From: a virus | Reading direction: 5' to 3' (one strand) | DNA: 64,000 bases | IMG/VR virus record: IMGVR_UViG_3300033489_000004 | Location: 1 to 64,000 of that record | Part shown: positions 16,950 through 60,060 of the stretch, one piece after another | How positions within the stretch are numbered: position 1 is the stretch's first letter | Layout: every line of letters starts with the position of its first letter | Translations under genes and position numbers: made by a program | The notes under the pieces: model-generated | Told to the model about the DNA's origin: nothing | Database searches by the model: none | Seen by the model: only the letters and a program-made list of their open reading frames with translations

Positions 16950-16978
16950 TTGACAACATTAATGATAAATGCTAAAAT
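16950..16978 (+). promoter_or_regulatory. sigma70/sigmaA promoter
   Basis: TTGACA-N17-TAAAAT with TG extension. Confidence 0.75.
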
Positions 16979-26912: not shown

Positions 26913-27189
26913 ATTACATAACAACGACTCATTACTATACACAGGAGCTATGGCTGTATGGGATTGTTATTTTATTTCCAGTAGGCAGGAAAAAAAACAG
27001 TGTTCAGAAAATAAAAAGACATGCAATAAAACTGGCTGTTCTTACTATCTTAGAAATATTAATTCTTGTATTGGAATAAGAGAAAATGAAAGATGTGATG
27101 ACTGTATAATAAACAAAATTCCTGGACTTAAAAAATACTGCAACAAGTTAAAGAAGGAGGGAAAATGTCAAAAAAGAAGACGGGTATAG
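26902..27189 (+). CDS. Cys-rich hypothetical protein
   Basis: ORF track; likely internal start. Confidence 0.4.
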   Translation: MNTRLHNNDSLLYTGAMAVWDCYFISSRQEKKQCSENKKTCNKTGCSYYLRNINSCIGIRENERCDDCIINKIPGLKKYCNKLKKEGKCQKRRRV

Positions 27190-29480
27190 AGATAGATGAC
27201 TATGATAATATAGATAAAATGTGCAGTACTTTTAACGATTTCTACGGGGAGGGTGCTGCCACTGATGCAAACTACTCACATTCTGAGTATATTCCTACAG
27301 AAATCCTACCACTAGATTTAATGATACCCTATGGAGGTATTCCCCAGGGAAGAGTTGTAATGCTCAAAGCCCCTGAAGGAGCCGGGAAATGCCTGCATAA
27401 AGATACCTACTGCTTAACGGATAAAGGGATACAAACAGTAGAGGAAATTTTTGTGGAAAATGGGGTAAAATTAGAGCAAAAAGAAATTTTTGTTGAAAAG
27501 GAAATTTTGTTAGCAAATGAGGATAATAATTTAGAGAGAGTATCTCATTTTTATTCCAATGGTAAAGAAGATGTGGTAAAGGTTATTTCAAGTAATGGAC
27601 AGGAAATTGTAGGTACTCCCAACCATCCAATAAGGGTGATACATAAAGGAATGATTGTATGGAAAAAGTTAAAAGATATTACAACTGAAGATTATGTAGT
27701 AATAAGCAGAAATACAAAACAATTTGGCAAAAAAAATTCTCCTAGACTTGCTACATTATTGGGTTATCTTATTGCAGACGGCTATTTAGGATCAAAAAAT
27801 CTTATTGGGTTTACTAATAACGATGAAGAAATTTTGCAGGAGTTTGAAGATTTAGTTAGCGACTATATTCCAAAAGAGTTAGCTAAATATCCTAGAGGAA
27901 ATACTGTAGAAACTTCTATCTATAGTAAAAAATTACGTACACTGTTTTTTAACAAATATGGAATTGACTATGTATTAGCTAAGAATAAAACAGTTCCTAA
28001 ATTAGTCAGATTAGGAAATAGAAAAACACAGATAAATTTTATTCGTGCCTATATGGAGTTAGAATCTAGCATTAATACAAATAAAGGAGTAATAGAAGTA
28101 ACCTCGGCATCTAAAAAACTTCTTGAAGAAATTCAGTTAATGCTATTAAATATGGGGGTTATCTCTGTACTGTCTGCTAAAAAAGTTAAAAATTATCCTA
28201 ATAATGACTATTGGAGAATACTAATAAGCGGGGTAGAAGTAGATAAGTACTTAAATATTATCGGCTACAAAACTAAAAAAAGGTTGCTGGTAGTAAATAA
28301 ATTACGCCTAGTAGAAAGGAATACTAACATAGATTCTATACCGAAGTTAGCCACTTTATTGGAGGTATTAGATAACTGTCGGTTAAGTAATAAAAAGTCT
28401 ACGACTAGGATTATTTATGATTATAAAAAAGGAAATGCTGCTGTAACATATAGCAGATTAAAATTAATTATAGACGAATATAATCAACAGCAATTAACAA
28501 AAAAGGGAAAAAAAATAGTTCAGTATCTAGTAAATTTATACCAAAAAGGTTATTTCTATTCAAAAGTGAATAAAATTTCACACTCTAGGGATTTTACTTA
28601 TGATTTTACTTTACCAAACACACATACATTTATATCTAATGGGTTTATTAGCCACAATACTTCTTTACTTTTACATATAATAGGAGCTTTTCAGAGATCA
28701 AAAATTCTTAACAACAGGGAAACTTCTGGATATAGTGATTGTGAATTTAGATTTGATAAGAGTTATGCTAATCTATGTGGAACTAGCACTAAACCAGGAG
28801 AAGTTAGGTTGTTGCATGGATTATGGGGGGAGGCTAATTTAGAAATGGCCGAGCATTTAATGAGATCGGGCAAGCTAAAAATACTGGGGGTTGATAGTGT
28901 TCCTGCTTTAGTTCCGAGGGAAGAAGTAGAAGGAGCTATGGATGATGCTCAAGTAGGTCTTCAAGCTAGAATGATAGGAAAAGCTCTTAGAAAACTTATA
29001 CCTGTTGCTTACTCTACTGGCACTACAATAATATTCACTAATCAAATAAGAGAAAAAATAGGGGTAACCTGGGGCAGTAACGAGTCTCTGCCAGGGGGAC
29101 GCTCACTTCGGCACTACTCTGATTTGATTCTTGATATAAGAAAGGTGGATACTTTCACAAAAAATCCTACAATAAGAAATAAGGTTCGTACTATTAAATA
29201 CGGACAAAGATGTAAGATAAAAATAGCTAAAGGTCTAGGTGGGGAAGGTAGAGAGTGTTTTGTTAATCTTTACTATGGACAAGGTATCAATGAATATGCT
29301 AATATAGTAGATATAGTAGAAGATTATGGGATTTTTAAGAAGTCAGGACAAACCTATATGAGAAACAAAGAAAAGATAGGTACTTACAATACAGCTATGA
29401 AAAAACTAGAGGAAGATAGTAAGTTCAAGGAAGAGATAATAAAAGAAATATGGGAGGTTCATAACGAATATGGTATATAG
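27165..29480 (+). CDS. recA: RecA recombinase with intein
   Basis: GGIPQGRVV..PEGAGK|T, VDSVPALVPREEVEG, GLQARMIGKALRKL, FTNQIREKIG, PGGRSLRHYS. Confidence 0.95.
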   Translation: MSKKKTGIEIDDYDNIDKMCSTFNDFYGEGAATDANYSHSEYIPTEILPLDLMIPYGGIPQGRVVMLKAPEGAGKCLHKDTYCLTDKGIQTVEEIFVENGVKLEQKEIFVEKEILLANEDNNLERVSHFYSNGKEDVVKVISSNGQEIVGTPNHPIRVIHKGMIVWKKLKDITTEDYVVISRNTKQFGKKNSPRLATLLGYLIADGYLGSKNLIGFTNNDEEILQEFEDLVSDYIPKELAKYPRGNTVETSIYSKKLRTLFFNKYGIDYVLAKNKTVPKLVRLGNRKTQINFIRAYMELESSINTNKGVIEVTSASKKLLEEIQLMLLNMGVISVLSAKKVKNYPNNDYWRILISGVEVDKYLNIIGYKTKKRLLVVNKLRLVERNTNIDSIPKLATLLEVLDNCRLSNKKSTTRIIYDYKKGNAAVTYSRLKLIIDEYNQQQLTKKGKKIVQYLVNLYQKGYFYSKVNKISHSRDFTYDFTLPNTHTFISNGFISHNTSLLLHIIGAFQRSKILNNRETSGYSDCEFRFDKSYANLCGTSTKPGEVRLLHGLWGEANLEMAEHLMRSGKLKILGVDSVPALVPREEVEGAMDDAQVGLQARMIGKALRKLIPVAYSTGTTIIFTNQIREKIGVTWGSNESLPGGRSLRHYSDLILDIRKVDTFTKNPTIRNKVRTIKYGQRCKIKIAKGLGGEGRECFVNLYYGQGINEYANIVDIVEDYGIFKKSGQTYMRNKEKIGTYNTAMKKLEEDSKFKEEIIKEIWEVHNEYGI
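27390..28658 (+). mobile_element. LAGLIDADG intein (423 aa) in RecA Walker A
   Basis: Starts CLHKDT, ends FISHN followed by Thr; LLGYLIADG and FIRAYMELES blocks. Confidence 0.92.
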
Positions 29481-37528: not shown

Positions 37529-37601
37529 TCGGATAGGCAGGAATCGAACCTGCAGCAACCTGGCCCCAAACCAGGGACTCCACCACCTGAGCTACTATCC
37601 G
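37529..37601 (-). tRNA. tRNA-Pro(TGG)
   Basis: CGGATAG..CCTGG-TT-TGG-GG-CCAGG..GGTTCGATTCC..CTATCCGA. Confidence 0.9.
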
Positions 37602-37602
37602 G

Positions 37603-37684
37603 TGCCGGGGGAGGGAGTCGAACCCTCACAGCCTAAGACCACCGGATTTTAAGTCCAGCGTGTATACCGTTCCACCACCCCGGC
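37603..37684 (-). tRNA. tRNA-Leu(TAA)
   Basis: GCCGGGG..CTGGA-CT-TAA-AA-TCCGG, long variable arm, GGTTCGACTCC..CCCCGGCA. Confidence 0.92.
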
Positions 37685-38154: not shown

Positions 38155-41100
38155 TTAGAAAGTTATTCTTTCCCCTATACTTTTTCTTATATATCCCTCT
38201 GGTTCATTTTTCCCATTTCTATACGGATAAAATGGACAAGAATTATCTGGACAATTTTTTCTTACAGAAGGGGAACCTCCACAGCACCAGGTACAAAATT
38301 CTTTCATAGCTAATGCTTTTGTAAAGATTTTTTTACCTGTATAGCCTTTTGTATTCTTTTTTCCTGTTCTGTAAACAAAAATTGTACAATCTGTTCCTTG
38401 GCAATTAAGTATCAATTTAGAGTTTCCACTACATTCTGAGCATAAAAGATGAATAGATTGATATCTTGAATAAGGTTTATCCCCCGCATACTTTTTTCTA
38501 CTGTGTTTTTTATGCCCTTTTTGAAAAGCCATTATTACTATCCTTCCACATTAATTGATATCCAGTTATTACATTGAATACAGGTATTATGGATTTCAAA
38601 ACTTTTTCCTTCTGATTTATATTGATATATTGTTCTTTTTTCTAGTGTGCAATCAAAGTCTTTTGTTTGAAAATAGTTAAGTGGTTGAGCTTCTCCACAA
38701 AAGGGGCAATATAAAACAGTATCTACTGTATCAAACATTCCCATTAAATTACTCCTTTCTATTTAAATATACTATTGAAAAGTAGTCAAACATAACTAAT
38801 GAATACTAATGCCCATATACCATTTGCTAGATGCTGTATTGCACGGGATATTTCAATTAAAGCTTTTGCTTCAGTCATTATATTTCCCCCATTACTCGCT
38901 CGCCCACACAAACAATATCTACAAAATCGGATGCGGAAATAATAATTTCTTTATTGTCTTTTGTAGTTAGTTTCATTACCCCTTTTTCAGGGATATTCAA
39001 AGAAATCCTTTTTATTTCTATATCAATTTCTTTATTTTTATTCAGTATTCTTACTATCATTCTTTATTCCTCCAGATTTCTCCAGTATTTGTAATAATCT
39101 CTATATCATAAGGGGAGGGGTTTTGTAATTCTATGGATTTTATTTCTCTACTTATTTCTTCTACTACTATGTCAACATCCTTTTTTACTGTTTCCCAGGT
39201 TGTTCTGTTTTTTGTATGGTAGTGTAAGGATTCGTGGTATTCTTCATGGAACCCAAAATTTTTTAGGTGGTTTTTTAAACCCACAGAATTTACACAGACT
39301 ATTTTTGCACTTTTGCCAAGAGTATTAAAATAAAAAAATACACGAAAACCAAGGTTTTTATTACTTATCATTTTTACTTCCTCCTTCTACTATGGGTATG
39401 TTGAGTTATCCACTTACCTTCTCGGTGGCTACAAACCACCCAAATAACTAAACAAATAATAATTGCAATCATCTTTACCTCCTAATACTATTATAACATA
39501 CTTTACGCTTTTTGTAACTATTTTATTACGCACCGCGTAACCTAAATCATTTAGAGCGTAGCTCGTCGGCGACTACCTAAAAACCCCAGCTAGAAAGCTT
39601 GATAATTTACTTGCCAACCAATCTATAACACAAAGTAAATCAAACAAAACAACTAACGGCCAGATAAAAACAAAAAATCCAGAATCTAAATAGTCTTCTA
39701 CATAGTAAGGATCTCTAAAAATCCCAACAATAAAATAAATATAGCGCCTAATCCTCCTCTAAATCTAATCCCCTAGCTAACTTAGCACACGCTATTTGAA
39801 AAACACAACACATACAAGTACTAACTTCAGCTTCTTGACAAGCGGCAAACCAAAAATCTAGGGCATCCCTCTCTCTTTCAGTTATCTTGATAACCCAATT
39901 TTTTTCAACTTCCATTTTTTCTTATCCTCCTTTCCCATAAAAAGGGCAGTATAAAATATCACTTACTCTATCATACATTCCTATTATTTACAAACCCCCT
40001 TATTAATACAGTTATTTAGGATATGATCACTACAGTTACTACAAAGGGCAAGATCTTTTTTATAGTGGGGATTATCTGTAAGTTTGTCTTGATATTTGAA
40101 TGTAACAGTAACACAAACCCGTTCAAAAAACTCCCCACACTTGTCACAACGAAATCCTTTAGGCATTTTGATTACTCCTTTCCTTTATAATATTTTACTT
40201 TGTTATTATAGTCAATACACACACCTAAACAGTTTTCTCTACAAATTTTATCCTTCATAGAGTCATGGTCTTTAAACCATTCTTTTATTTTCAGTTATGT
40301 GGTAATTCTTAACAATTGCCCCCTCTAAAAAATGGTTTTCGTCGATATCTACCTAAATAGCCCCCCAATTTACGGCCACACCAACCAATACCACAAACAA
40401 TTAACCAAGGGACTGCAAAAGCCCAAAAAGCAGTAAGAAATATTACAGTCATTCCAAGATCAAAATTAGAGTAATTTTCTTCTTCATTAAGCATTACTGC
40501 AAGCATACCAATTAAAAACCCCGCTACCAAATAAAGAGTTAAACCAAAATACCCCATTAGTTCTCCTTTATATTAGCTTACTTAATAGTCCCACACACAG
40601 GATCAAGAACATAAAATCGACCACCATAAAAATAATACTACGTAGAAGAGATATCAAAAAAAGACACATTCTATCATTCTGACTATTTAATTGAGTACTC
40701 CAGGCCCACGTTCCTAAAAATAATATAAGGGTTAGCATTAAATTTTCTCCTTTTTATTTAATACTACCACAAATATCTTTATTAATCAAGGTATTTTTAC
40801 ATTTAATAGGGGGTTTTTTAACATTTAAAATACAGTTTTTTCATAAGATAGGTCTGTACACCTAAAGTGTGCTGAGAGACCTATTTCCCCTGGTTATGTC
40901 TATGATAGGGGGTACATCTAATAGCTAGTGCAATATAATTAAGCATTATAATGCATCTGACCTGGTCTTTAACAAGCTGGACTATGAAAATCGAAACCTT
41001 GACACTATTAATGTAACAGTTCTACTGTCATATAGCAATCTTCTCAGCCTACATAGCCTCAGACTTAATGATCTTGATTCTAAGCTACCTTTGTTCTTGC

Positions 41101-42236
41101 CTTGGTATTACCCTACCTGTTTAGTATTCTCTCTTCTCTTGTTATTAGTGTTGGCCGGTTTCATGTGAAACCAAGAGATTCCCGGATATCATACTGTCCG
41201 AGAGTCTCTAATATTGATTCTGACAGGCTTTTATATATCCCCGGTATATTACCCTTAAGGGCAAAGAAAAAGACCCTCAAAGCTAACTCTAAGGGTCTTG
41301 ATTGTTCGTCGTGCTTTGCCTCTATCTGTATGGGTCTCCCCCTGCCTCAAGAATATCAGCGCAACACTCGCAAAGTATATACATTTTCGACCTCCTAACT
41401 GTTCGCGATTTTCCTAATAATGTTGATACTGTCGGCAACATTATAGGTCTGTTTTTCATTGATCTTGGTTATGTGAATATTCCAGGTTTTGAGTTTGTGT
41501 GCTCCAATGTCCTTCGCCGTATTGTCATTCTTTGCGATTACCAGGCAAGATCTGCTCTGCTGATTGTTGTCAATCACTCGATAGAGATCCATTTTTCATC
41601 CTCTCTTAATTATGGTGCTGTTGTTCGTTCGCTATCTGAGATGATACTATACGTGTTCGACCCCCCCCAATATTTCGTGTAGTCCGTATTCTTTTACGAC
41701 TAAGCTCCCTCGGACATTCGCCGATACTCTCACCTGAAACCCAAATTCTGACAGTTCGATAATGTAGTTCGGCTGCGGTAGCAACTTTTGGTGGATGATC
41801 TTTTGTGCTTTAATTCTTTCTTCTTGTGTCATGATTCAAACCTCCTAAAGATTTTTGTCAATTACTAATTCACAGGTTTCCCCGCAGATTTTTTTGTGCT
41901 TACAATCGGAGCAGCATGAATCTAGGCAGTCGTCGTACCGGCAGTCCAGCATTCCCGGATGCTGACAATCTAGACAACCGGGAAAATCTTCCGAGGGTAT
42001 GACATACTGACAAAGCTTTTTTACTTTTGCTTGCCGTTTTGCTTTTGTGCTTTCCATTGTTACCTCCTTTTCATTTCTTTACTTAGTTGTTCATTTGCGA
42101 TTTGGAGTTCTTTCAAATAGTTGTTTGGATCGACTTCCACCGCCCGCAGTTTGCCATTGACGATAGTTACCACCTGTGATCTTCTAGTTCCCTTTTCTAG
42201 ACTTTTGATGTATTCCTTGTCAAGTTTGACTGCCAT
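38155..42236 (-). other. cluster of small minus-strand hypothetical ORFs, several Cys-rich or membrane (38155-38532, 38538-38744, 38878-39060, 39057-39371, 39984-40166, 40309-40557, 41395-41592, 41647-41832, 41845-42057, 42060-42236)
   Basis: ORF track; most have AGGAG-type RBS. Confidence 0.55.
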
Positions 42237-42256
42237 TTTCTTTCCTCCTAGTATAT

Positions 42257-42284
42257 ACATCGGTCTATGATCAGAAAAACTTTA
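42257..42284 (-). promoter_or_regulatory. sigma-28-type promoter P1
   Basis: TAAA-gtttttctgatcatag-ACCGATGT (N16), upstream of RBS and ATG 42236. Confidence 0.7.
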
Positions 42285-42555
42285 GCCCTGTATATAGTAT
42301 TCGACGCTGGTCTTCCATTTACCTTTATTTTTCCGGGCTTTTGTCTTAATACTTCTTGTGTTTTGATTATCTCAGCATACTATATATTGTGTATATTTTA
42401 CCAGGCTTTGCCCTGTTTTGTTCAATACCTGCTAGATGAGTCGTTGAGAGCAACTCTAAGAGGTTTTTATGGTATGCTTAATGGTTTAGTATTCAAGGTA
42501 GATTTTCAAGGGCTTAAATCGCAAATAAGAGCCTCAAAATTTTTGGTTTTAACTA

Positions 42556-42583
42556 TTAAGTTTTGCCCGGAAAATGTCGATAA
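42556..42583 (+). promoter_or_regulatory. sigma-28-type promoter P2
   Basis: TTAA-gttttgcccggaaaat-GTCGATAA (N16). Confidence 0.6.
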
Positions 42584-42757
42584 TATATTTATATGTCAAA
42601 ATACCTTGGAGGTCAATTTGAGCTTGTCAGCAGAGGATAATTTGTCTATTTGTGCAAATAAATATTTGGGCTTTCAGCTAGGTAAGCTTTAGCCCAAGTT
42701 CAGGTAGGCAAGCAACCAGAACAGAACTGAACAGGAATTCAAAAAGTTTCTAAAATG

Positions 42758-42798
42758 AAAAAAGGACCGATTTTTTATTTTCGGTCCCTTCTTCTTTT
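42758..42798. terminator. bidirectional intrinsic terminator
   Basis: A-run, GGACCGA-loop-TCGGTCC, T-rich tail. Confidence 0.65.
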
Positions 42799-42821
42799 CT
42801 CCACGAGGCGGTACAACTTTT

Positions 42822-43828
42822 CTAAAAATTTTGGTTAACTGTATATTGAGCCAACAACAGATTATTTAATGTATCTTTGTCAAAATCTTTTTTCTTCAAA
42901 TTCCTATCAATTGCATCTCTTAATTGACGTCTAATAAAATATAGATCGTCAATTTTTACCGGCTTAAAATTTTCGTACATCTTTTCATTATTTAATGTAA
43001 TTGTAACATCTTTTACTATCTCTATTGCTTCTTCAAAGTCATCCCCATCTATATTAGTTACTAGTTCTTTATCAAAACCATTTGTTACACACTTAAAATT
43101 CTTTTCACTCATTTTAACTCCTTTTTTCGTATCGTTGACAACTATTTACATAAAAAGATTCATCTTGATATGTTTTGGCCGTTATACAATTCTTTTTATG
43201 CTTACAATCATAAGAAGGAAAAATTAACTATTTCTTGTCAAATCTTCTTGGGCTTCCTTGCAAACTCCCCATAGCTCCTGATAATCTGCTATTGCGACTG
43301 CCCATTGCAAAAGATCAGTTCGCAAGCTTGCGTTTTCAATTCCCTGAAAAACTTGATCTTCTACGTATTTTTGAATTTCTTTAGCTGATTTGAATTGTAG
43401 CCAATGATTATAAGTTGTCTCATCATTTGTTAGCCAAAGATTAGTCAGCCATGTTGCCTTGTCTTTGTAACCATTATACTCTTTACACATTTTCAAACTC
43501 CTTTTCTATCGGCTTTTTACTTCTTAATAGTATTATCGGCAAATTAAGCAAAAACCTTTAGACTATTATAAATCTCATTTCTGGTAAGCTCTCCAGAATC
43601 TAACTTTTTCAAAAGTTCTTTTGCTTCTTTTCTTTTGCAAGGTATAGAGGAAAGAATTCTGCTTTCCTTGCTTATAAATTCTGGTAATGTCAATAAAGCT
43701 TTACAATATATCGGCATAGCTAAAAAATCAATATTGTGCTTCTTTTTGAATTCATCCTGCAATTTTGCATGGTTATTATACCACGTTGTTTCTTTTTTGT
43801 ATGTTGTTTGGCTTATATCTCTTCCCAT
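42822..43828 (-). other. three early-type hypothetical ORFs (42822-43112, 43224-43490, 43544-43828)
   Basis: ORF track, each with AAGGAG RBS; 43224 ORF has YNGY..ATWLTNLWLTNDE motif common in phage early proteins. Confidence 0.65.
43533..43560 (-). promoter_or_regulatory. sigma-28-type promoter P3
   Basis: TAAA-ggtttttgcttaattt-GCCGATAA (N16), perfect consensus. Confidence 0.85.
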
Positions 43829-43848
43829 TTTTTACTCCTTTATTTTAG

Positions 43849-43876
43849 TTATCGACACAAACAAGGAAAATCTTTA
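43849..43876 (-). promoter_or_regulatory. sigma-28-type promoter P4
   Basis: TAAA-gattttccttgtttgt-GTCGATAA (N16). Confidence 0.8.
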
Positions 43877-43909
43877 ACATTATTTTAAACAAATTTTTTC
43901 AGAAAAGAC

Positions 43910-43936
43910 TAAAGTTTTTTGAGATTTTGTCGATGT
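43910..43936 (+). promoter_or_regulatory. sigma-28-type promoter P5
   Basis: TAAA-gttttttgagatttt-GTCGATGT (N15). Confidence 0.6.
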
Positions 43937-43977
43937 ATCTTTATAATTTTAGTCAAAATCTAATCTTAGAGTAACGT

Positions 43978-44005
43978 TAAAGATTTTTACTGGTTATGCC
44001 GATAA
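43978..44005 (+). promoter_or_regulatory. sigma-28-type promoter P6
   Basis: TAAA-gatttttactggttat-GCCGATAA (N16), perfect consensus. Confidence 0.85.
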
Positions 44006-44036
44006 TAAAAATAATACAATATAATCAGGAGTTATA

Positions 44037-44363
44037 ATGCAAGAAAAAAGCTGTGAAAACTGTTATAGAAGGTACTGCTTGCACAAAAACAAATTTGTGC
44101 TTTCATGCAGTGACCATTTACCAGAATACAGAACCAAAATAGAAAAGCCAGGAATAAGAGAACGGCAGTTTTCAATAATTCAAAAAATATTAGAGAATAG
44201 TTCAGAAATTACCTTTTCGGATTTAACAGCCTTAGTTAACCGAGAAGTAAAAACATGCAGGCAAACAGTAAGCAAGCTAGCTCAGGATATCGGGCAGGTA
44301 ACGGGGCATAAAAAGCAGGGACATGTCTTGAAAAAACGTCCTATATATGATAGAATTAAATAG
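44037..44363 (+). CDS. putative winged-helix regulator (ArgR-N-like) with Cys-rich N-terminus
   Basis: RERQFSIIQKILENSSEITFSDLTALVNREVKTCRQTVSKLAQDIG. Confidence 0.5.
   Translation: MQEKSCENCYRRYCLHKNKFVLSCSDHLPEYRTKIEKPGIRERQFSIIQKILENSSEITFSDLTALVNREVKTCRQTVSKLAQDIGQVTGHKKQGHVLKKRPIYDRIK
44328..44356 (+). promoter_or_regulatory. sigma70/sigmaA promoter
   Basis: TTGAAA-N17-TAGAAT with TG extension. Confidence 0.6.
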
Positions 44364-44613
44364 AAATGCCAAGTGATTTTTAACAAACTAAACAGGACTT
44401 AACAAGTAAACAAAAGTTAAAAAACGGAAAAGGAAAAATCAAATGAAACTAGGATATATTAAAGTAAGGAAAACCAAAAAGGGATACAAAGCAAAATTAT
44501 TGAACGGCAAACCTATTATGAAAAATCATTTTGAAGAATTGCCGGGTTTTGTAAATCAAAAATTTGCAAGACGGTATGTGGAAAGTCACTGGGAACTACT
44601 GAAAGAGTATAAC

Positions 44614-44641
44614 TAAAGCTTTTTGCTGAACTTGCCGATAA
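44614..44641 (+). promoter_or_regulatory. sigma-28-type promoter P7
   Basis: TAAA-gctttttgctgaactt-GCCGATAA (N16), perfect consensus. Confidence 0.85.
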
Positions 44642-44674
44642 TAGAATTAAGAAGCAAATAAGGGGGAAGTAAAA

Positions 44675-45046
44675 ATGGAATTAGCATTTAATATTTTAAA
44701 GGGGGAAGTATTAACAGATATTACTATATCTGAAGATAAAGAAGAAATATTTTTTGAGACAATAGAAGGGGAATGTTTCAAACTATGCCATCTCCAAAAC
44801 TGATGTGAGTCTGTTACCGTAGAAGATATCTGCGGAAATTTAGATGACTTAATTGGAGAGCCTATTCTCCTTGCAGAAATGGCCACTACCCAGACTAATC
44901 CAGAAGGAATAAGTAAAGAATATCAAGATAGCTTTACTTGGACATTTTATAAATTATCAACAAATAAAGGATCAATTACCATAAGATGGTATGGAGAATC
45001 AAACGGATGTTATTCAGAAGAAGTAGATTTTGTACAAGTAAAATAG
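44675..45046 (+). pseudogene. paralog of 50851-51210 with in-frame TGA at a Cys position (pseudogene or selenoprotein)
   Basis: [55 protein letters not shown]; TGA at 44801-44803. Confidence 0.75.
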
Positions 45047-45057
45047 AAGGAGTAAAA

Positions 45058-46370
45058 ATGAGTTTAGCAAAGGAACTAGACGGAGCACGACTTGTTAAGT
45101 ACGACGATCAACTTGATGCTGTAATTGTTTGGTTCGGCGGGAGCGGTATAACAGCCTATACTTCAGAAGGAAAAGAGTTTGCTTTCTGGAATTTACATTC
45201 TGATAAAGATTTTCCAACACAAGAAGAAGTAGAAACAAATATTGCTAGGCATATCAAAAACCAGGACTATTTAGAATTGTACTCATGGGAAGGAGCTTAT
45301 TAGAATGGCTATAGTAAAAAGTGTAGGTGTATTTGGTGGACCTCTTGGAAGTTATGGTTTTAGAAGGGGTAAGTGGTTGGCGGCACTAGAGGACGGAACA
45401 AAATTTGAGTTTTTCGCTTCTATCAGCCACAGCTTAGATTTGTGGATGCAAGAAAAAATGCTAATAGAGAATGCACAAGCAAAACTAGATAAGGAAGTAG
45501 GTTGATTATGGGTCTTTCAATGGAAGAAGTAAAGGCAAAGAATCTATATAGAGGAGATGCTTTAAAATAGATAAAGTAATACGAATAGGAACAATTCCCT
45601 ATGGAGACAGTAGAAAAAGTATCTACTGTAAAATTAAGTTTACAGACGGAAAACTTAGTATTTCCGGTGCAGTAGACCCTAGATCGAATAATACCACAAT
45701 TACCTGTGGACAAATTCAGAGCATAATACAAATAGCTTTAACTAATCAAGATATCCAGTATGCCAAAGACTGGAACAATGAGCTTGTTGTGGCTTTTCTT
45801 AGCGTTTGGAATCGCTGGCACCCAAAAGATATAAGTATAAGTTCAGTTACTTGGAAGTGTAAAAATAAAATCAGTATGTGGGCATAAAGGAGGAAAATAA
45901 AATGGATCTTAAAGACTTACCAAAAGAATCTCAGTGCTATGACTGCAAACATCAAAGGAACTGTATATCAGCTACAATGTATCAAGATGAAGGATTTTAC
46001 TTTAATTCCTGCCAGAGGTATGAGACATCCGGCGAGCACCAGTTATTTATCGGCTCATTGCATGACGCACAAGCTCATTGTAAATGTGGATGGCGTTATG
46101 CTGTTTCCGGTTCGCGAACCAAGGATGAAATAATGGTAGAGTACCTAAAGCACATAGGAGAATACTATGAGCAAAAATGATTATTCTGTGACTGTGGGCG
46201 ATTGGTTTTATAGTGAAAAAGACGGCAGTTATTATCACTTTTGCCCAAAATGCAAGACGTATAAGAAATGTGTATCAATAACTGATATAGAAGAATCTAG
46301 GCATTACCTAGAATGTAAGCATTCTGTAGTTGTGAGTATACTAACAGGTAACACTGTAAAGGAGAAGTAA
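45058..46370 (+). other. small hypothetical ORFs (45058-45303, 45305-45505, start-less 45567-45887, 45902-46180, 46167-46370)
   Basis: ORF track plus manual translation. Confidence 0.5.
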
Positions 46371-46372
46371 TA

Positions 46373-47728
46373 ATGGATAAGCCTGTATGTTTTACAGCCA
46401 GCAAGAAGGATTTACAAACAGCTATCTCCAAGGTAAAGTATGGGATTAACAAAAAAACTCCTTTGCCTATCCTTGGAGGTTACTTGTTTGAGGTCAGCGG
46501 TGAGCAAGTCACTGTGAGGTCAACTGATTTAGAGGTTGAGATAGAAACCAGCGTAGAAAATGCACAGCTAAGTTCTGATTATCTTCCTGGAGGACGTTTT
46601 GCAGTTGATGCACGAACGCTTGAGAAGATTTTGAAGACACTGCCCAACGAAGAAATAGAATTGCATTATTGTGCTGAAGAAGAAGATTCTTGGAGTCTTG
46701 GAATTTCTACGAAGGATACAGCATTGCATATTTCTACTCTTAATGCCGAAGATTTTCCACCTAGCTTGGCACTAGAAAAAATAGATTTTCAAGCTGTTGT
46801 AACCGAACTAGCTTTAGTCGCCGCACTAACCAGAGTTCTTCCGGCTGTTAGCACAGATGATACACGACAAGTTTTAACCAATGTTTTGCTCAAGTACAAG
46901 GATATGCACATGCACTTAGTGGCTACAGACAGCTATCGACTTGCACAAGATCAGATAGAAACATATGAGGCTGAAGTATTCACGAACAGGAAACCAGTTG
47001 TGCTTGTTCCAGCATATGCTGTTAGAAAGTTGTTAAAAATCATGGGCAAAGAGGGTGAAGTTCTGATTAAAATAGACTTGGGTGTAACTGGAAGGATAGA
47101 ATTTATCGCTCAAGATGCACGGATGGTAGCAAGACTAGCAGAAGGAGAATTCCCGAAGTACGAACAGCTCTTGCCAGAGTTTTACTATCTGGATGTGCTA
47201 GTCGATAGGCAAGCATTACTGTCCGCTGTCGAACGAGCAAGTGCAATATTGGAAACACCAAGAGCAAATTCTTATAGTGAAAATCCTTACTTTGTTCAAC
47301 TTGAAACTGGAGGCACGAAACTGTATTACCCATTGACCATTACAGCGAAGCAAGAGGATAATACAGTTGTAGAAGAAGTCAAAGCCATCGTAGAAGTGAA
47401 TTCTCGACTTGCAAAAGAAACAGCCAAAGAAGAAGCTAACTTGCTAAAGTTGGAAAAAAAGTACTCGGCTACAATCGAAGATGATACAGATTTGCTAGTT
47501 GGGTTAGAAATGTCTATGTCTAGATCAAAAAGTAATATTTTGAAAATGAAAGCTATTCAAGATAAAAGTGTCTGTATAGGTTTCAATCCAGATTTTCTAC
47601 TTGACGGTCTAAAGGCACTTGAAGGGGATACAATTTCGCTACAACTAATGTCAGCGGAAAATCCTGCCCTGTTGGAATCGACTACAAACTATTCATATCT
47701 GTTAATGCCTGTAAGATTAGGAGGATAA
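46373..47728 (+). CDS. dnaN: DNA polymerase III beta sliding clamp with extra insertion
   Basis: PILGGYL, STDLE, AEDFP, AVSTDDTRQVLT, VATDSYRLA, RLAEGEFPKYEQL, IGFNPDFLLDGL, YLLMPVR. Confidence 0.93.
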   Translation: MDKPVCFTASKKDLQTAISKVKYGINKKTPLPILGGYLFEVSGEQVTVRSTDLEVEIETSVENAQLSSDYLPGGRFAVDARTLEKILKTLPNEEIELHYCAEEEDSWSLGISTKDTALHISTLNAEDFPPSLALEKIDFQAVVTELALVAALTRVLPAVSTDDTRQVLTNVLLKYKDMHMHLVATDSYRLAQDQIETYEAEVFTNRKPVVLVPAYAVRKLLKIMGKEGEVLIKIDLGVTGRIEFIAQDARMVARLAEGEFPKYEQLLPEFYYLDVLVDRQALLSAVERASAILETPRANSYSENPYFVQLETGGTKLYYPLTITAKQEDNTVVEEVKAIVEVNSRLAKETAKEEANLLKLEKKYSATIEDDTDLLVGLEMSMSRSKSNILKMKAIQDKSVCIGFNPDFLLDGLKALEGDTISLQLMSAENPALLESTTNYSYLLMPVRLGG

Positions 47729-53079: not shown

Positions 53080-53107
53080 TAAAGTTTAAGACAAAAAATG
53101 CCGATAA
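53080..53107 (+). promoter_or_regulatory. sigma-28-type promoter P8
   Basis: TAAA-gtttaagacaaaaaat-GCCGATAA (N16), 7 nt before tRNA-Leu. Confidence 0.85.
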
Positions 53108-53114
53108 TAGAGTT

Positions 53115-53199
53115 GTCCCAGTGTTGTAATTTGGTAGCTGAGCAGGACTTAAAATTCTGTGGCCATAAGGTCGTGCTGGTTCGAGTCCAGCCTGGGACA
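53115..53199 (+). tRNA. tRNA-Leu(TAA), second divergent copy
   Basis: GTCCCAG/CTGGGAC acceptor, CAGGA-CT-TAA-AA-TTCTG, variable arm GGCC-ATAA-GGTC, GCTGG-TTCGAGT-CCAGC. Confidence 0.88.
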
Positions 53200-53356
53200 C
53201 GAAAGGAGAAACAACAATGAATATGAGTATTAGTTTATTTGGTTCTGGTGGATATTTTCATATTTGGATATCCTTTAGAAAACAAATTGTTCTATCTATT
53301 ACTATAGATTCTTTGTTTGTGGAACTAGTAGTATTTAATAAAAAAGTAGTAGAAAA

Positions 53357-56130: not shown

Positions 56131-56421
56131 ATGGTCTCTTCGTTTCATCGAGGGCATAAAACAATAACAGGCAAAGATCTAAGGTGGAGATATGCCGACA
56201 CAGAAAGATTAGTCCCTATTAATCCTTCAAAAGAAAGGCCCTGTAAACTATGTGGCAAAAAGCCAACTAGGGGTGGTGATGATTGGTGTCTTGGACATCT
56301 TCCAGGAGTTTTGTTTGCTTGTTGTGGTCATGGTGTTGAAGAAGGCTATATTCTTTTTGAAAACGGCATAAGAATAAGCGGAAAGTTTACAGTAGAAAGA
56401 TTTAATAAAAGGCGTAAGTAA
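56131..56421 (+). CDS. conserved phage hypothetical protein
   Basis: RPCKLCG..DWCLGHLPGVLFACCGHG motif. Confidence 0.65.
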   Translation: MVSSFHRGHKTITGKDLRWRYADTERLVPINPSKERPCKLCGKKPTRGGDDWCLGHLPGVLFACCGHGVEEGYILFENGIRISGKFTVERFNKRRK

Positions 56422-57191
56422 TGAATCTTAAAGAAGAATTTCTAAATGAATTGAAAGTTATTGGTTTTTCAAGATATACGACAATTAACTATAGTTCAGA
56501 TATTTCCAAACTGGAAAAAAACGGACTAGAAAATATTGAATATAACAATCTACGAAATATTGTATTAGAGACATTAGGAAATATTCCCAATCTTCGCTCA
56601 AGATCAAGAGCATTAAGTTGCTATAAATCCTTTTCTCGGTGGCTATATGACAACGAATATACGGATAAAGACACTTTAAAGTCCCTAAAGTCAATCAAAG
56701 TACCTAAAGTCCTTTTAAAAATTCCTAAAATTCAAAAAAGACCTATTCATAGTGAGTTTAAAAGCAAAAATTCGTTATATCAGACAATTATTGACACTCT
56801 AGAGCAGACAGGGGTGCGAGTAGGGGAATTGAGTCGATTAACTTTAGGAAATCTTAAAGAAGAAAGTATTATTGTATTCGGTAAAGGTTCTAAGGAAAGA
56901 GAAATACCTTGCAATAAAAAATTAGTCCTAGACATTCAAAGGGAATTGGGGATACATAAGCATTTTCCCTCTACTTCACAAATATTTAGGATCGTTAAGA
57001 AATATCTAGGGGTATCGCCGCATAAGCTACGCCACAATTTTGCCAAAAAATTAGCTGCTTCTGGGGCTAATGGTTTTACTATAATGCAACTGCTTGGGCA
57101 TAGCTCAATTTCAACCTCTCAGATTTATATAAATCTTGCAAATGATAAAAGCCTAAAGAAAGCTGTTGAAAAAGCTAATGAGAGAACGTAG
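56421..57191 (+). CDS. XerC/D-like tyrosine recombinase
   Basis: TGVRVGEL, GKGSKER, PHKLRHNFA, LLGHSSISTSQIY. Confidence 0.9.
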   Translation: MNLKEEFLNELKVIGFSRYTTINYSSDISKLEKNGLENIEYNNLRNIVLETLGNIPNLRSRSRALSCYKSFSRWLYDNEYTDKDTLKSLKSIKVPKVLLKIPKIQKRPIHSEFKSKNSLYQTIIDTLEQTGVRVGELSRLTLGNLKEESIIVFGKGSKEREIPCNKKLVLDIQRELGIHKHFPSTSQIFRIVKKYLGVSPHKLRHNFAKKLAASGANGFTIMQLLGHSSISTSQIYINLANDKSLKKAVEKANERT

Positions 57192-59143: not shown

Positions 59144-59282
59144 GTTATATAAATAGTTTTCTATCCCTGCGCTGCTCATGCGCCAGGCGTTCGGCACACA
59201 GAGAGAAAAGGAGTAGGGGATGAGACAAATGAAGCATAGAGCTCTTGTCGTTCCCCTCAGACAACTTTCTGAGTCACAAATG

Positions 59283-59394
59283 ATCCCGTTCGGTAATCTT
59301 TGAAGCAAAAAGACTTGCGTTCGCCAAAATATTACCGCACGGTAAGTTATTGCTTGACAGGCACTCAATAGTGTGATATATTCCCTATCGGTAA
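59283..59394 (+). promoter_or_regulatory. sigma70 promoter with three operator palindromes
   Basis: TTGACA(59354)-N17-TATATT; ATCCCGTTCGGTAA, TTACCGCACGGTAA, TTCCCTATCGGTAA at exact 49-bp spacing. Confidence 0.8.
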
Positions 59395-59395
59395 C

Positions 59396-59644
59396 ATGAA
59401 TACTAAAAATCCAGAGCAGCTTGGCGCTGCTATTCGCGCAAGGCGCAGACAGTTGAAGGTTACCCAGAAGGATCTGGCGATGACCTGTGGTACGGGTTTG
59501 CGCTTCATTATTGACCTTGAGAAGGGCAAGCCAACCTGCCAAATCGGAAAAATCCTACAGGTTCTCCAAGCCCTGGGGCTCAAGCTCCAGATTGTTAGCC
59601 CTGGCGTTGACACCGGCCAAGGCGAGAAGTCATGGATAAATTGA
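59396..59644 (+). CDS. hipB: HipB-like XRE/HTH antitoxin (y4mF family)
   Basis: LGAAIRARRRQLKVTQKDLAMTCGTGLRFIIDLEKGKPTCQIGKILQVLQALGL. Confidence 0.88.
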   Translation: MNTKNPEQLGAAIRARRRQLKVTQKDLAMTCGTGLRFIIDLEKGKPTCQIGKILQVLQALGLKLQIVSPGVDTGQGEKSWIN

Positions 59645-60060
59645 TCGTTTATCTGAATGCCGAGAGGGTCGGAAGCCTCGAACAAGACGATAGTGGCTTG
59701 CTGCAATTCTCCTACGATCAGACATGGCTTGAAAAGCCGAGTGCCATGCCTCTCTCTCGTTCACTACCTCTCCAAAGCGAGGTGTTCTCGGGGAAAAAGG
59801 CCAGGCCTTTCTTTGCCGGCATACTACCCGAAGAGGGACCACGAAAAAAGATAGCAGAGATCCTCGGAATCAGTGACGCAAATGACTTTGCAATGTTGGA
59901 GAGGATAGGAGGTGTTATAATGAAAGATATACTAGAGTATCCTTGTGGGTTAAGTGGGGTGGATGCAGTAGATTGTGAAATAATATACAGCAAGTGTGGT
60001 ATCTGTTGTGCTGAGTGTGAAGGACCCTGTGATGAAATCTGTGAAGAATGTAAATTATAA
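59632..60060 (+). CDS. HipA N-terminal domain only, fused in frame to a Cys-rich phage peptide (59920-60060)
   Basis: VGSL..FSYDQTWL..PLSRSLPL..PFFAGILPEE..NDFAMLERIGG, then no kinase domain. Confidence 0.8.
   Translation: MDKLIVYLNAERVGSLEQDDSGLLQFSYDQTWLEKPSAMPLSRSLPLQSEVFSGKKARPFFAGILPEEGPRKKIAEILGISDANDFAMLERIGGVIMKDILEYPCGLSGVDAVDCEIIYSKCGICCAECEGPCDEICEECKL

Follow-up and report, generated by a model that had tools for sequence, protein, structure and literature searches.

Probable sigma-28-type promoter sites clustered at the divergence point of two transcription arms in a large phage genome

The stretch of DNA analyzed here (the window) comprises the first 64 kb of the 103,402-bp phage record IMGVR_UViG_3300033489_000004 of IMG/VR (34.5% G+C), and it carries eight two-box elements of the sigma-28 (FliA/SigD) consensus class, seven of which are gathered within 2.4 kb. 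We propose that these elements function as promoters of the sigma-28 (FliA/SigD/WhiG) class and that they form a second promoter class beside a handful of sigma-A promoters. They would start three short leftward units of orphan open reading frames (ORFans), a rightward transcript of ~200 nucleotides (nt), a rightward block that begins with a conserved 108-amino-acid (aa), Cys-rich protein with a helix-turn-helix (HTH)-like part and continues with DnaN, the clamp loader and a helicase, and, at position 53080, a tRNA-Leu without leader. Their most likely reader is the core RNA polymerase of the host, equipped with a sigma-28-family factor that the host itself supplies; if so, expression of the units would depend on how active this factor is. 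A first-pass annotation, made from the letters of the window, had already interpreted the cluster as a phage programme read by the motility sigma factor of the host; overall, that interpretation is partly supported.

Sequence, placement and conservation of the eight sites

All eight sites listed in the first-pass annotation were found again at the same coordinates and on the same strands (Table 1). They were compared with two published descriptions, the functional sigma-28 consensus TAAAGWWY-N11/12-RYCGAWRN (Yu et al. 2006, cited in PMC8762339) and the FliA consensus TAAAGTTT-N11-GCCGATAA (PMC7286023). The -35 box begins with TAAAG at seven sites and with TTAAG at one; TAAAGWWY is complete at five, and the other three miss a single position, namely position 2 (42556) or position 6 (43533 and 44614). 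The -10 box fits RYCGAWRN at every site and is GCCGATAA in half of them, and the exact form TAAA-N16-GCCGATAA, earlier reported for four of the eight, was located at 43533(-), 43978(+), 44614(+) and 53080(+). The two 8-mers are separated by N12 at seven sites and by N11 at the remaining one, within the N11/12 range given in PMC8762339. When 13 sites from the phage and from a relative described below were aligned on the -10 box, they read tTAAAG.TTTt-(spacer)-TG(c/t)CGATAAta, in which both FliA boxes are present and most copies carry one additional spacer base relative to the FliA consensus; CGAT is invariant across 16 sites of the two phages. Both boxes, their spacing and their conservation thus place the sites in the sigma-28 consensus class, as had been suggested.

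Each site lies upstream of a transcription unit and faces it. At six of them the -10 box ends 20-43 nt upstream of a start codon led by a ribosome-binding site (RBS) and read in the same orientation, in agreement with the earlier description; the individual distances are 20 nt at 42257(-), 35 nt at 42556(+), 43 nt at 43533(-), 20 nt at 43849(-), 31 nt at 43978(+) and 33 nt at 44614(+). The gene behind 43978(+) has a second site, 43910(+), ~100 nt ahead of it. At 53080(+), only 7 nt separate the end of the site from the tRNA-Leu gene, the 5' end of the tRNA lying 7-8 nt after the -10 box; with this spacing, the start point expected for sigma-28 coincides with the 5' end of the tRNA, a position that is indirectly consistent with a sigma-28 start.

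The regular expression implied by the first-pass annotation matched the whole record nine times, whereas 200 dinucleotide shuffles averaged 0.235 matches and never gave more than 2. The ninth match, at 1535(+), has neither an RBS nor a start codon behind it and is probably due to chance. Since this expression had been derived from these very sites, enrichment was retested with the independently published consensus TAAAGWWY-N11/12-RYCGAWRN. It gave five exact matches, all among the eight sites, against 0.05 in shuffles, and 15 matches against 3.2 when up to one mismatch was allowed, the remaining three of the eight sites each missing one position. The box GCCGATAA alone occurs 7 times, against 0.78 in shuffles. 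A count of 8-mers over the intergenic regions brought out no further promoter class.

Conservation of the sites was followed in the only relative recovered by a metagenome scan, which consists of L112 (20.3 kb of a 73-kb contig) and L113 (1 kb) and shares 54-81% protein identity with the phage. L112 aligns patchily with positions 34.6-47.7 kb of the window, at 65-90% DNA identity, and contains eight sigma-28-type sites in 20 kb, each ahead of an RBS and a start codon and including a divergent pair. At site 44614 and its counterparts (L112 10515 and L113 976), only ~65 nt around the promoter still align; the boxes are kept, and the changes are confined to position 6 of the -35 box and to the spacer. 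Furthermore, the 28-mer of 43849(-) is identical in L112 at 9945, where it has the opposite orientation and stands ahead of the gene for the 108-aa protein. It follows that the promoters have been kept, moved and copied while their flanks and downstream genes changed, a pattern expected of a functional promoter class.

The 28-mer belongs to a promoter-bearing segment of 95 nt (43840-43934, corresponding to L112 9888-9981) that is 90.5% identical and inverted between the two genomes, the same promoter serving a leftward gene in one phage and the rightward 108-aa gene in the other.

The lineage is rare. Its DnaN has one relative, at 54% identity, and its large terminase has three, at 43-63%; megablast against GenBank phages returned no close relative, and neither DnaN nor the 108-aa protein, used as queries, retrieved one from IMG/VR. 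The motif is absent from the distant cultured relatives by capsid protein (Amboise, Stills and Basilisk) and from two IMG/VR relatives whose terminase is 44-45% identical.

Candidate readers of the sites

The timing of phage gene expression is usually explained by the housekeeping sigma factor of the host together with sigma factors, polymerases and appropriators made by the phage. For the sites described here, a host sigma-28 factor is the likeliest reader, because a factor with this exact two-box specificity would be expected to be a sigma-28 homologue and the phage seems to be without one; we hold this view with moderate confidence. Promoter function and reading by a host factor are both suggested by the motif, its enrichment, placement and conservation, and the absence of a recognizable phage sigma factor.

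The first-pass annotation had named a phage-encoded sigma factor outside the window as the alternative. The remaining 39 kb of the record were checked and contain no sigma-70-family gene. A six-frame search of all 103,402 bp, the ends of which are not closed, with PF04542, PF04545, PF08281, TIGR02937 and TIGR02479, models that cover regions 2, 4 and 4_2, the general TIGR02937 family and FliA/WhiG, likewise detected no sigma-70-family gene; the sole weak match to sigma region 4 falls inside an HNH/HTH homing endonuclease. A tblastn search of the record with E. coli FliA gave no match, FlgM was looked for in the record and not found, no RNA polymerase was seen among its large open reading frames (ORFs), and a 228-aa protein in a sigma-A-led module is not sigma-like.

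A phage-encoded factor of the sigma-28 type might nevertheless lie in unsequenced DNA or be too diverged for detection, in which case the sites would form a middle class that the phage turns on by itself, without link to host motility. The record is linear, has no end repeats, was rated 57% complete and is overrun by contigs at its left end, and its first rightward gene possesses both a sigma-A and a sigma-28-type promoter, a layout to be expected of a self-reinforcing regulator. However, the five sigma models and the FliA query were empty over 103 kb, and a protein with the exact two-box specificity of sigma-28 should retain detectable regions 2 and 4. In addition, the missing part is probably small. 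The left-end (head) and right-end (tape measure) genes share one strand, which would fit a single structural module spanning the ends, and a second assembly of the same phage measures 105,710 bp. Completeness estimates such as the 57% figure appear unreliable in this clade, because the IMG/VR record G011 (locus L157), a 69,331-bp relative with a 45% identical terminase, has direct terminal repeats and should thus be whole, and yet was rated 50% complete. Based on these three points, the record is probably nearly complete, and we regard a phage-made reader as unlikely.

The 108-aa protein itself is too small for a sigma factor and has no sigma match. Only four homologues were present in two very large protein collections, two of them further remote ones; it has no sequence match in PDB, no Pfam family and only a marginal PHROG match (E 0.006), and its AlphaFold model is poor (predicted local distance difference test, pLDDT, 56). 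It may be an early regulator, and its gene is readable by both promoter classes because the sigma-A promoter at 43919 interleaves with site 43910.

The sites could also be weak or atypical sigma-A promoters that use GATAAT as their -10 hexamer, or dual sigma-A/sigma-28 promoters. The sequence GCCGATAAT holds GATAAT in 10 of the 16 sites, site 43910 is interleaved with TTGAGA-N17-TATAAT, and other IMG/VR phage contigs share the interleaved build TAAAGTTTTT..TTGACA..GCCGATAA..TATAAT. Yet the invariant core is CGAT rather than GATAAT (two sites read CGATGT, two CGATAT and one GATAAC), and the would-be -35 box (TAAAGN) fits TTGACA at three of six positions, with no TGn extension; both features make this explanation improbable. 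The conserved G(C/T)C and TAAAG are features of sigma-28, and the real sigma-A promoters of this phage are near-perfect copies of TTGACA/TATAAT. These lie at 16950(+), 39518(-), 40215(-), 43919(+), 51899(+), 71004(-) and 91841(-), several of them TG-extended. As such consensus promoters are present, one of them serving the 108-aa gene, the phage would not be blind in a cell without sigma-28.

Because the cluster sits in a divergent control region adjoining an HTH-like protein, and an integrase-like recombinase is encoded at 56421-57191, the two-box element could instead be an operator for a phage DNA-binding protein, such as the 108-aa protein, in a region of the immunity type. This is very improbable: the element is asymmetric, always faces a gene and keeps the distance of a promoter from the RBS, for most of the units it is the sole promoter, the position of one copy is exactly right for a tRNA without leader, and the likeness to sigma-28 in both boxes and in the spacing would have to be a coincidence. 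Chance matches in AT-rich DNA, of which the additional match at 1535(+) with no gene behind it and the many coding repeats among IMG/VR matches to the pattern are reminders, are already refuted as an explanation by the 40- to 100-fold enrichment over shuffles, the clustering, the orientation and the conservation in the relative.

Several observations weigh against reading by a host sigma-28 factor, or limit it. First, the eight sites are not fully independent. Their spacers had been described as unrelated, with no duplication; this does not hold for all of them. Similarity reaches 87% over 46 nt between 43533(-) and 44614(+), and 78% over 49 nt between 43849(-) and 43978(+), so that duplication accounts for some of the copies. 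Second, N12 at seven of the eight sites is one base over the E. coli consensus, yet inside the published range. Third, some recognition by sigma-A is possible, because 10 of the 16 sites read GATAAT across the -10 box. Fourth, contigs extend 393 nt past the left end of the record without a joint to the other end, so that the record lacks 393 nt or more on that side and its ends are not closed; phage-encoded group-3 sigma factors do exist, and FliA/SigF-like sigma genes occur in GenBank phages (PMC9429907). Finally, the phylum of the host is a guess. Bacillota are weakly indicated by the YonB/SPbeta-type capsid, by its closest cultured relatives (Bacillus and Clostridium phages, 24-26% identity), by the strong Shine-Dalgarno sites and by the TG extension of sigma-A promoters. 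The nearest cellular DnaN proteins are only ~30% identical. A fragment with hipB and the N-terminal part of hipA (59186-59912, ~48% G+C) is 81-92% DNA-identical to genomes of Omnitrophota, Desulfobacterota, Syntrophales, Spirochaetota and others; it names no host, because ~91% DNA identity reaches genomes of many phyla, and it is a promiscuous toxin-antitoxin module captured by the phage. The sequencing runs that contain the stretch are soil-metagenome DNA only, with no RNA run among them.

A role of the sites in early expression or host takeover, the gating of infection by motility, and flagellotropism, which were all parts of the original interpretation, are conjecture. What the sites precede is a set of ORFans, genes for replication proteins and a tRNA gene, the rightward units running into DnaN, the clamp loader and the helicase, and searches with the tail and fibre proteins returned no informative family. 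Flagellar assembly is bistable in Bacillus populations. It is tentatively conceivable, though doubtful in our judgment, that a large phage without a sigma factor hands its control region, its clamp/helicase block and a tRNA to the flagellar sigma factor of the host, and that infection or the choice between lysis and lysogeny proceeds only in the motile subpopulation. If this were true, a host alternative sigma factor tied to cell state would link the outcome of infection to host behaviour without any phage regulator, and non-motile cells or chains would be predicted to be a refuge from infection.

Genome layout and features around the sites

The record is organized in blocks of genes of alternating orientation (Table 1), and the GC skew changes sign at ~44 kb, which places the sigma-28-type cluster at the divergence point of the two transcription arms. 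Within the replication blocks, a RecA/UvsX-type recombinase (27165-29480, +) is split by an intein with a LAGLIDADG endonuclease domain, and a tyrosine recombinase/integrase-like protein of 256 aa is encoded at 56421-57191 (+). Based on the latter, the phage may be temperate, or the recombinase may be used for dimer resolution. There are two tRNA-Leu(UAA) genes, at 37601-37684 (-) and 53115-53200 (+). The TG-extended sigma-A promoters at 16950(+), 71004(-) and 91841(-) lie 350-400 nt before the next ORF and may lead non-coding RNAs.

Table 1. Sigma-28-type sites and other features of the phage record (N, spacer between the two 8-mers).
Feature	Position	Strand	Remarks
Packaging/head genes (large terminase, portal, YonB/SPbeta-type major capsid protein)	1.8-16.7 kb	-	
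Replication/nucleotide block (dUTPase, PolA-type polymerase, primase-helicase, intein-bearing RecA, ribonucleotide reductase)	18-36 kb	+	
Small ORFan genes and four tRNAs	36.5-43.8 kb	-	
Terminator-like hairpin	41270..41299	-	13-bp stem, then T run; closes leftward unit
58-aa ORFan	42060..42236	-	First gene of leftward unit; no family
Sigma-28-type promoter TAAAGTTT-N12-ACCGATGT	42257..42284	-	Exact consensus match; AGGAGG and ATG downstream; leads leftward unit 42236 to ~41300
Sigma-28-type promoter TTAAGTTT-N12-GTCGATAA	42556..42583	+	One consensus mismatch
Hairpin GGACCGA...TCGGTCC	42764..42787		T runs on both strands; read from sequence
DUF7249 protein, 88 aa	43224..43490	-	Pfam PF23907, E 8e-07; phrog_871
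Sigma-28-type promoter TAAAGGTT-N12-GCCGATAA	43533..43560	-	Precedes DUF7249 gene
Sigma-28-type promoter TAAAGATT-N12-GTCGATAA	43849..43876	-	Exact consensus match; precedes 94-aa ORFan (43544-43828)
Composite promoter: TAAAGTTT-N11-GTCGATGT (43910-43936) interleaved with sigma-A TTGAGA-N17-TATAAT (43919-43947)	43910..43947	+	
Sigma-28-type promoter TAAAGATT-N12-GCCGATAA	43978..44005	+	Exact consensus match; 31 nt before gene of 108-aa protein
Block with DnaN, helicase, integrase-like recombinase, clamp loader	from 44.0 kb	+	
108-aa Cys-rich protein, HTH-like C-terminal part	44037..44363	+	First rightward gene
Sigma-28-type promoter TAAAGCTT-N12-GCCGATAA	44614..44641	+	Precedes DUF7448 gene and operon into DnaN
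DUF7448 gene with one in-frame TGA	44675..45046	+	Full-length Pfam PF24240, E 7e-21, if TGA read through
DNA polymerase III beta clamp (DnaN)	46373..47728	+	Rightward block; Pfam, three DnaN domains
Sigma-28-type promoter TAAAGTTT-N12-GCCGATAA	53080..53107	+	Exact consensus match
tRNA-Leu(UAA), 86 nt	53115..53200	+	ARAGORN; anticodon at position 36
Endolysin, glycosyltransferases, tail proteins; tape measure at very end	63.7-103.2 kb of record	-	

The site at 42556 is predicted to lead a transcript of ~200 nt, containing a 24-codon ORF or acting as a small RNA, that would end at the hairpin at 42764-42787, likely a two-way terminator between convergent units. Between this site and the divergent promoter at 42257(-), ~270 nt (42285-42555) are without a convincing ORF, and within them positions 42451-42542 are 76% conserved in L112 (9514-9605); an Rfam search of 40500-46500 matched no family. 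The N-terminus of the 58-aa ORFan (..KLDKEYIKSLEK..) resembles that of an L112 product (..VDKQYIRSLEK..), as judged by eye on unaligned sequences, and the L112 gene also lies behind a sigma-28-type site (L112 9642). The in-frame TGA of the DUF7448 gene does not reflect genome-wide recoding, because TGA otherwise terminates 21 of 176 ORFs.

Comparison with known systems

A strict form of the pattern, TAAAGNTTTT-N10/11-GCCGATAA, was found in 109 stretches of IMG/VR (58 distinct sequences), against 11 for the reversed control. Among the 58 distinct sequences, ~20 look like coding repeats, ~23 are followed by an RBS and a start codon, and sigma-A boxes interleave with 11. Apparent dispersed sites in five further IMG/VR records (G001-G005) were rejected, because they proved to encode a protein motif, KVF..YADK, that recurs in repeated paralogues. 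Such matches to conserved coding DNA, which also include a 28-mer common to ~20 short contigs, are a source of false positives for scans based on the motif alone.

Interleaved promoters of the form TAAAGTTTTT-N2-3-TTGACA-N2-GCCGATAA-N6-TATAAT precede an RBS and ATG in the IMG/VR loci L005, L006, L019, L021, L038, L052, L085, L086, L089, L096, L097 and L109, and diverged sigma-like ORFs, 167 and 212 aa long, are present in two of the records with such promoters (G006 and G007). Site 43910 is built in this way too: TAAAGTTTT is followed by a -35 hexamer, a spacer that contains the CGAT box, and TATAAT. In contrast to those phages, which are unrelated by protein comparison, seven of the eight sites here stand alone, without sigma-A boxes.

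Phage-encoded sigma cascades, such as SPO1 gp28 and gp33/34 and the SigF/G-like sigma factors of Bacillus phages (PMC13401047 and PMC9429907), are similar in assigning a block of genes to a second promoter class distinct from sigma-A. The phage described here differs from them in that searches of the record revealed no sigma gene and its promoters follow the host sigma-28 consensus rather than a phage-specific one. Among the papers searched, none reports a phage programme built on sigma-28 promoters; the cases they describe are individual prophage genes that depend on sigma-28.

Class 3 flagellar and chemotaxis promoters, read by FliA in E. coli and Pseudomonas, by SigD in B. subtilis and by sigma-28 in Chlamydia, have the same boxes, TAAAG(T)TT and G(C/T)CGATAA, and the spacing of the phage sites lies inside their published N11/12 range. 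The putative phage promoters differ from them in using N12 at seven of eight sites and in preceding ORFans, a clamp/helicase block and a tRNA instead of flagellar genes. We are thus dealing with a known promoter type in an unusual role; the observation is well supported, while the identity of the reader is what we infer.

The closest precedent for a sigma-28 promoter on phage-derived DNA comes from E. coli K-12 and its Qin cryptic prophage, which carries flxA; the promoter of this gene reads TAAAGATT-N11-GCCGATAG, lies ~24 nt before an RBS-led ATG and loses activity 28-fold in a fliA deletion (PMC1935009). However, flxA is one accessory gene, left in a defective prophage and expressed within the regulon of its host, whereas here at least eight such promoters would organize both the divergent control region and the replication genes in a large phage that is intact.

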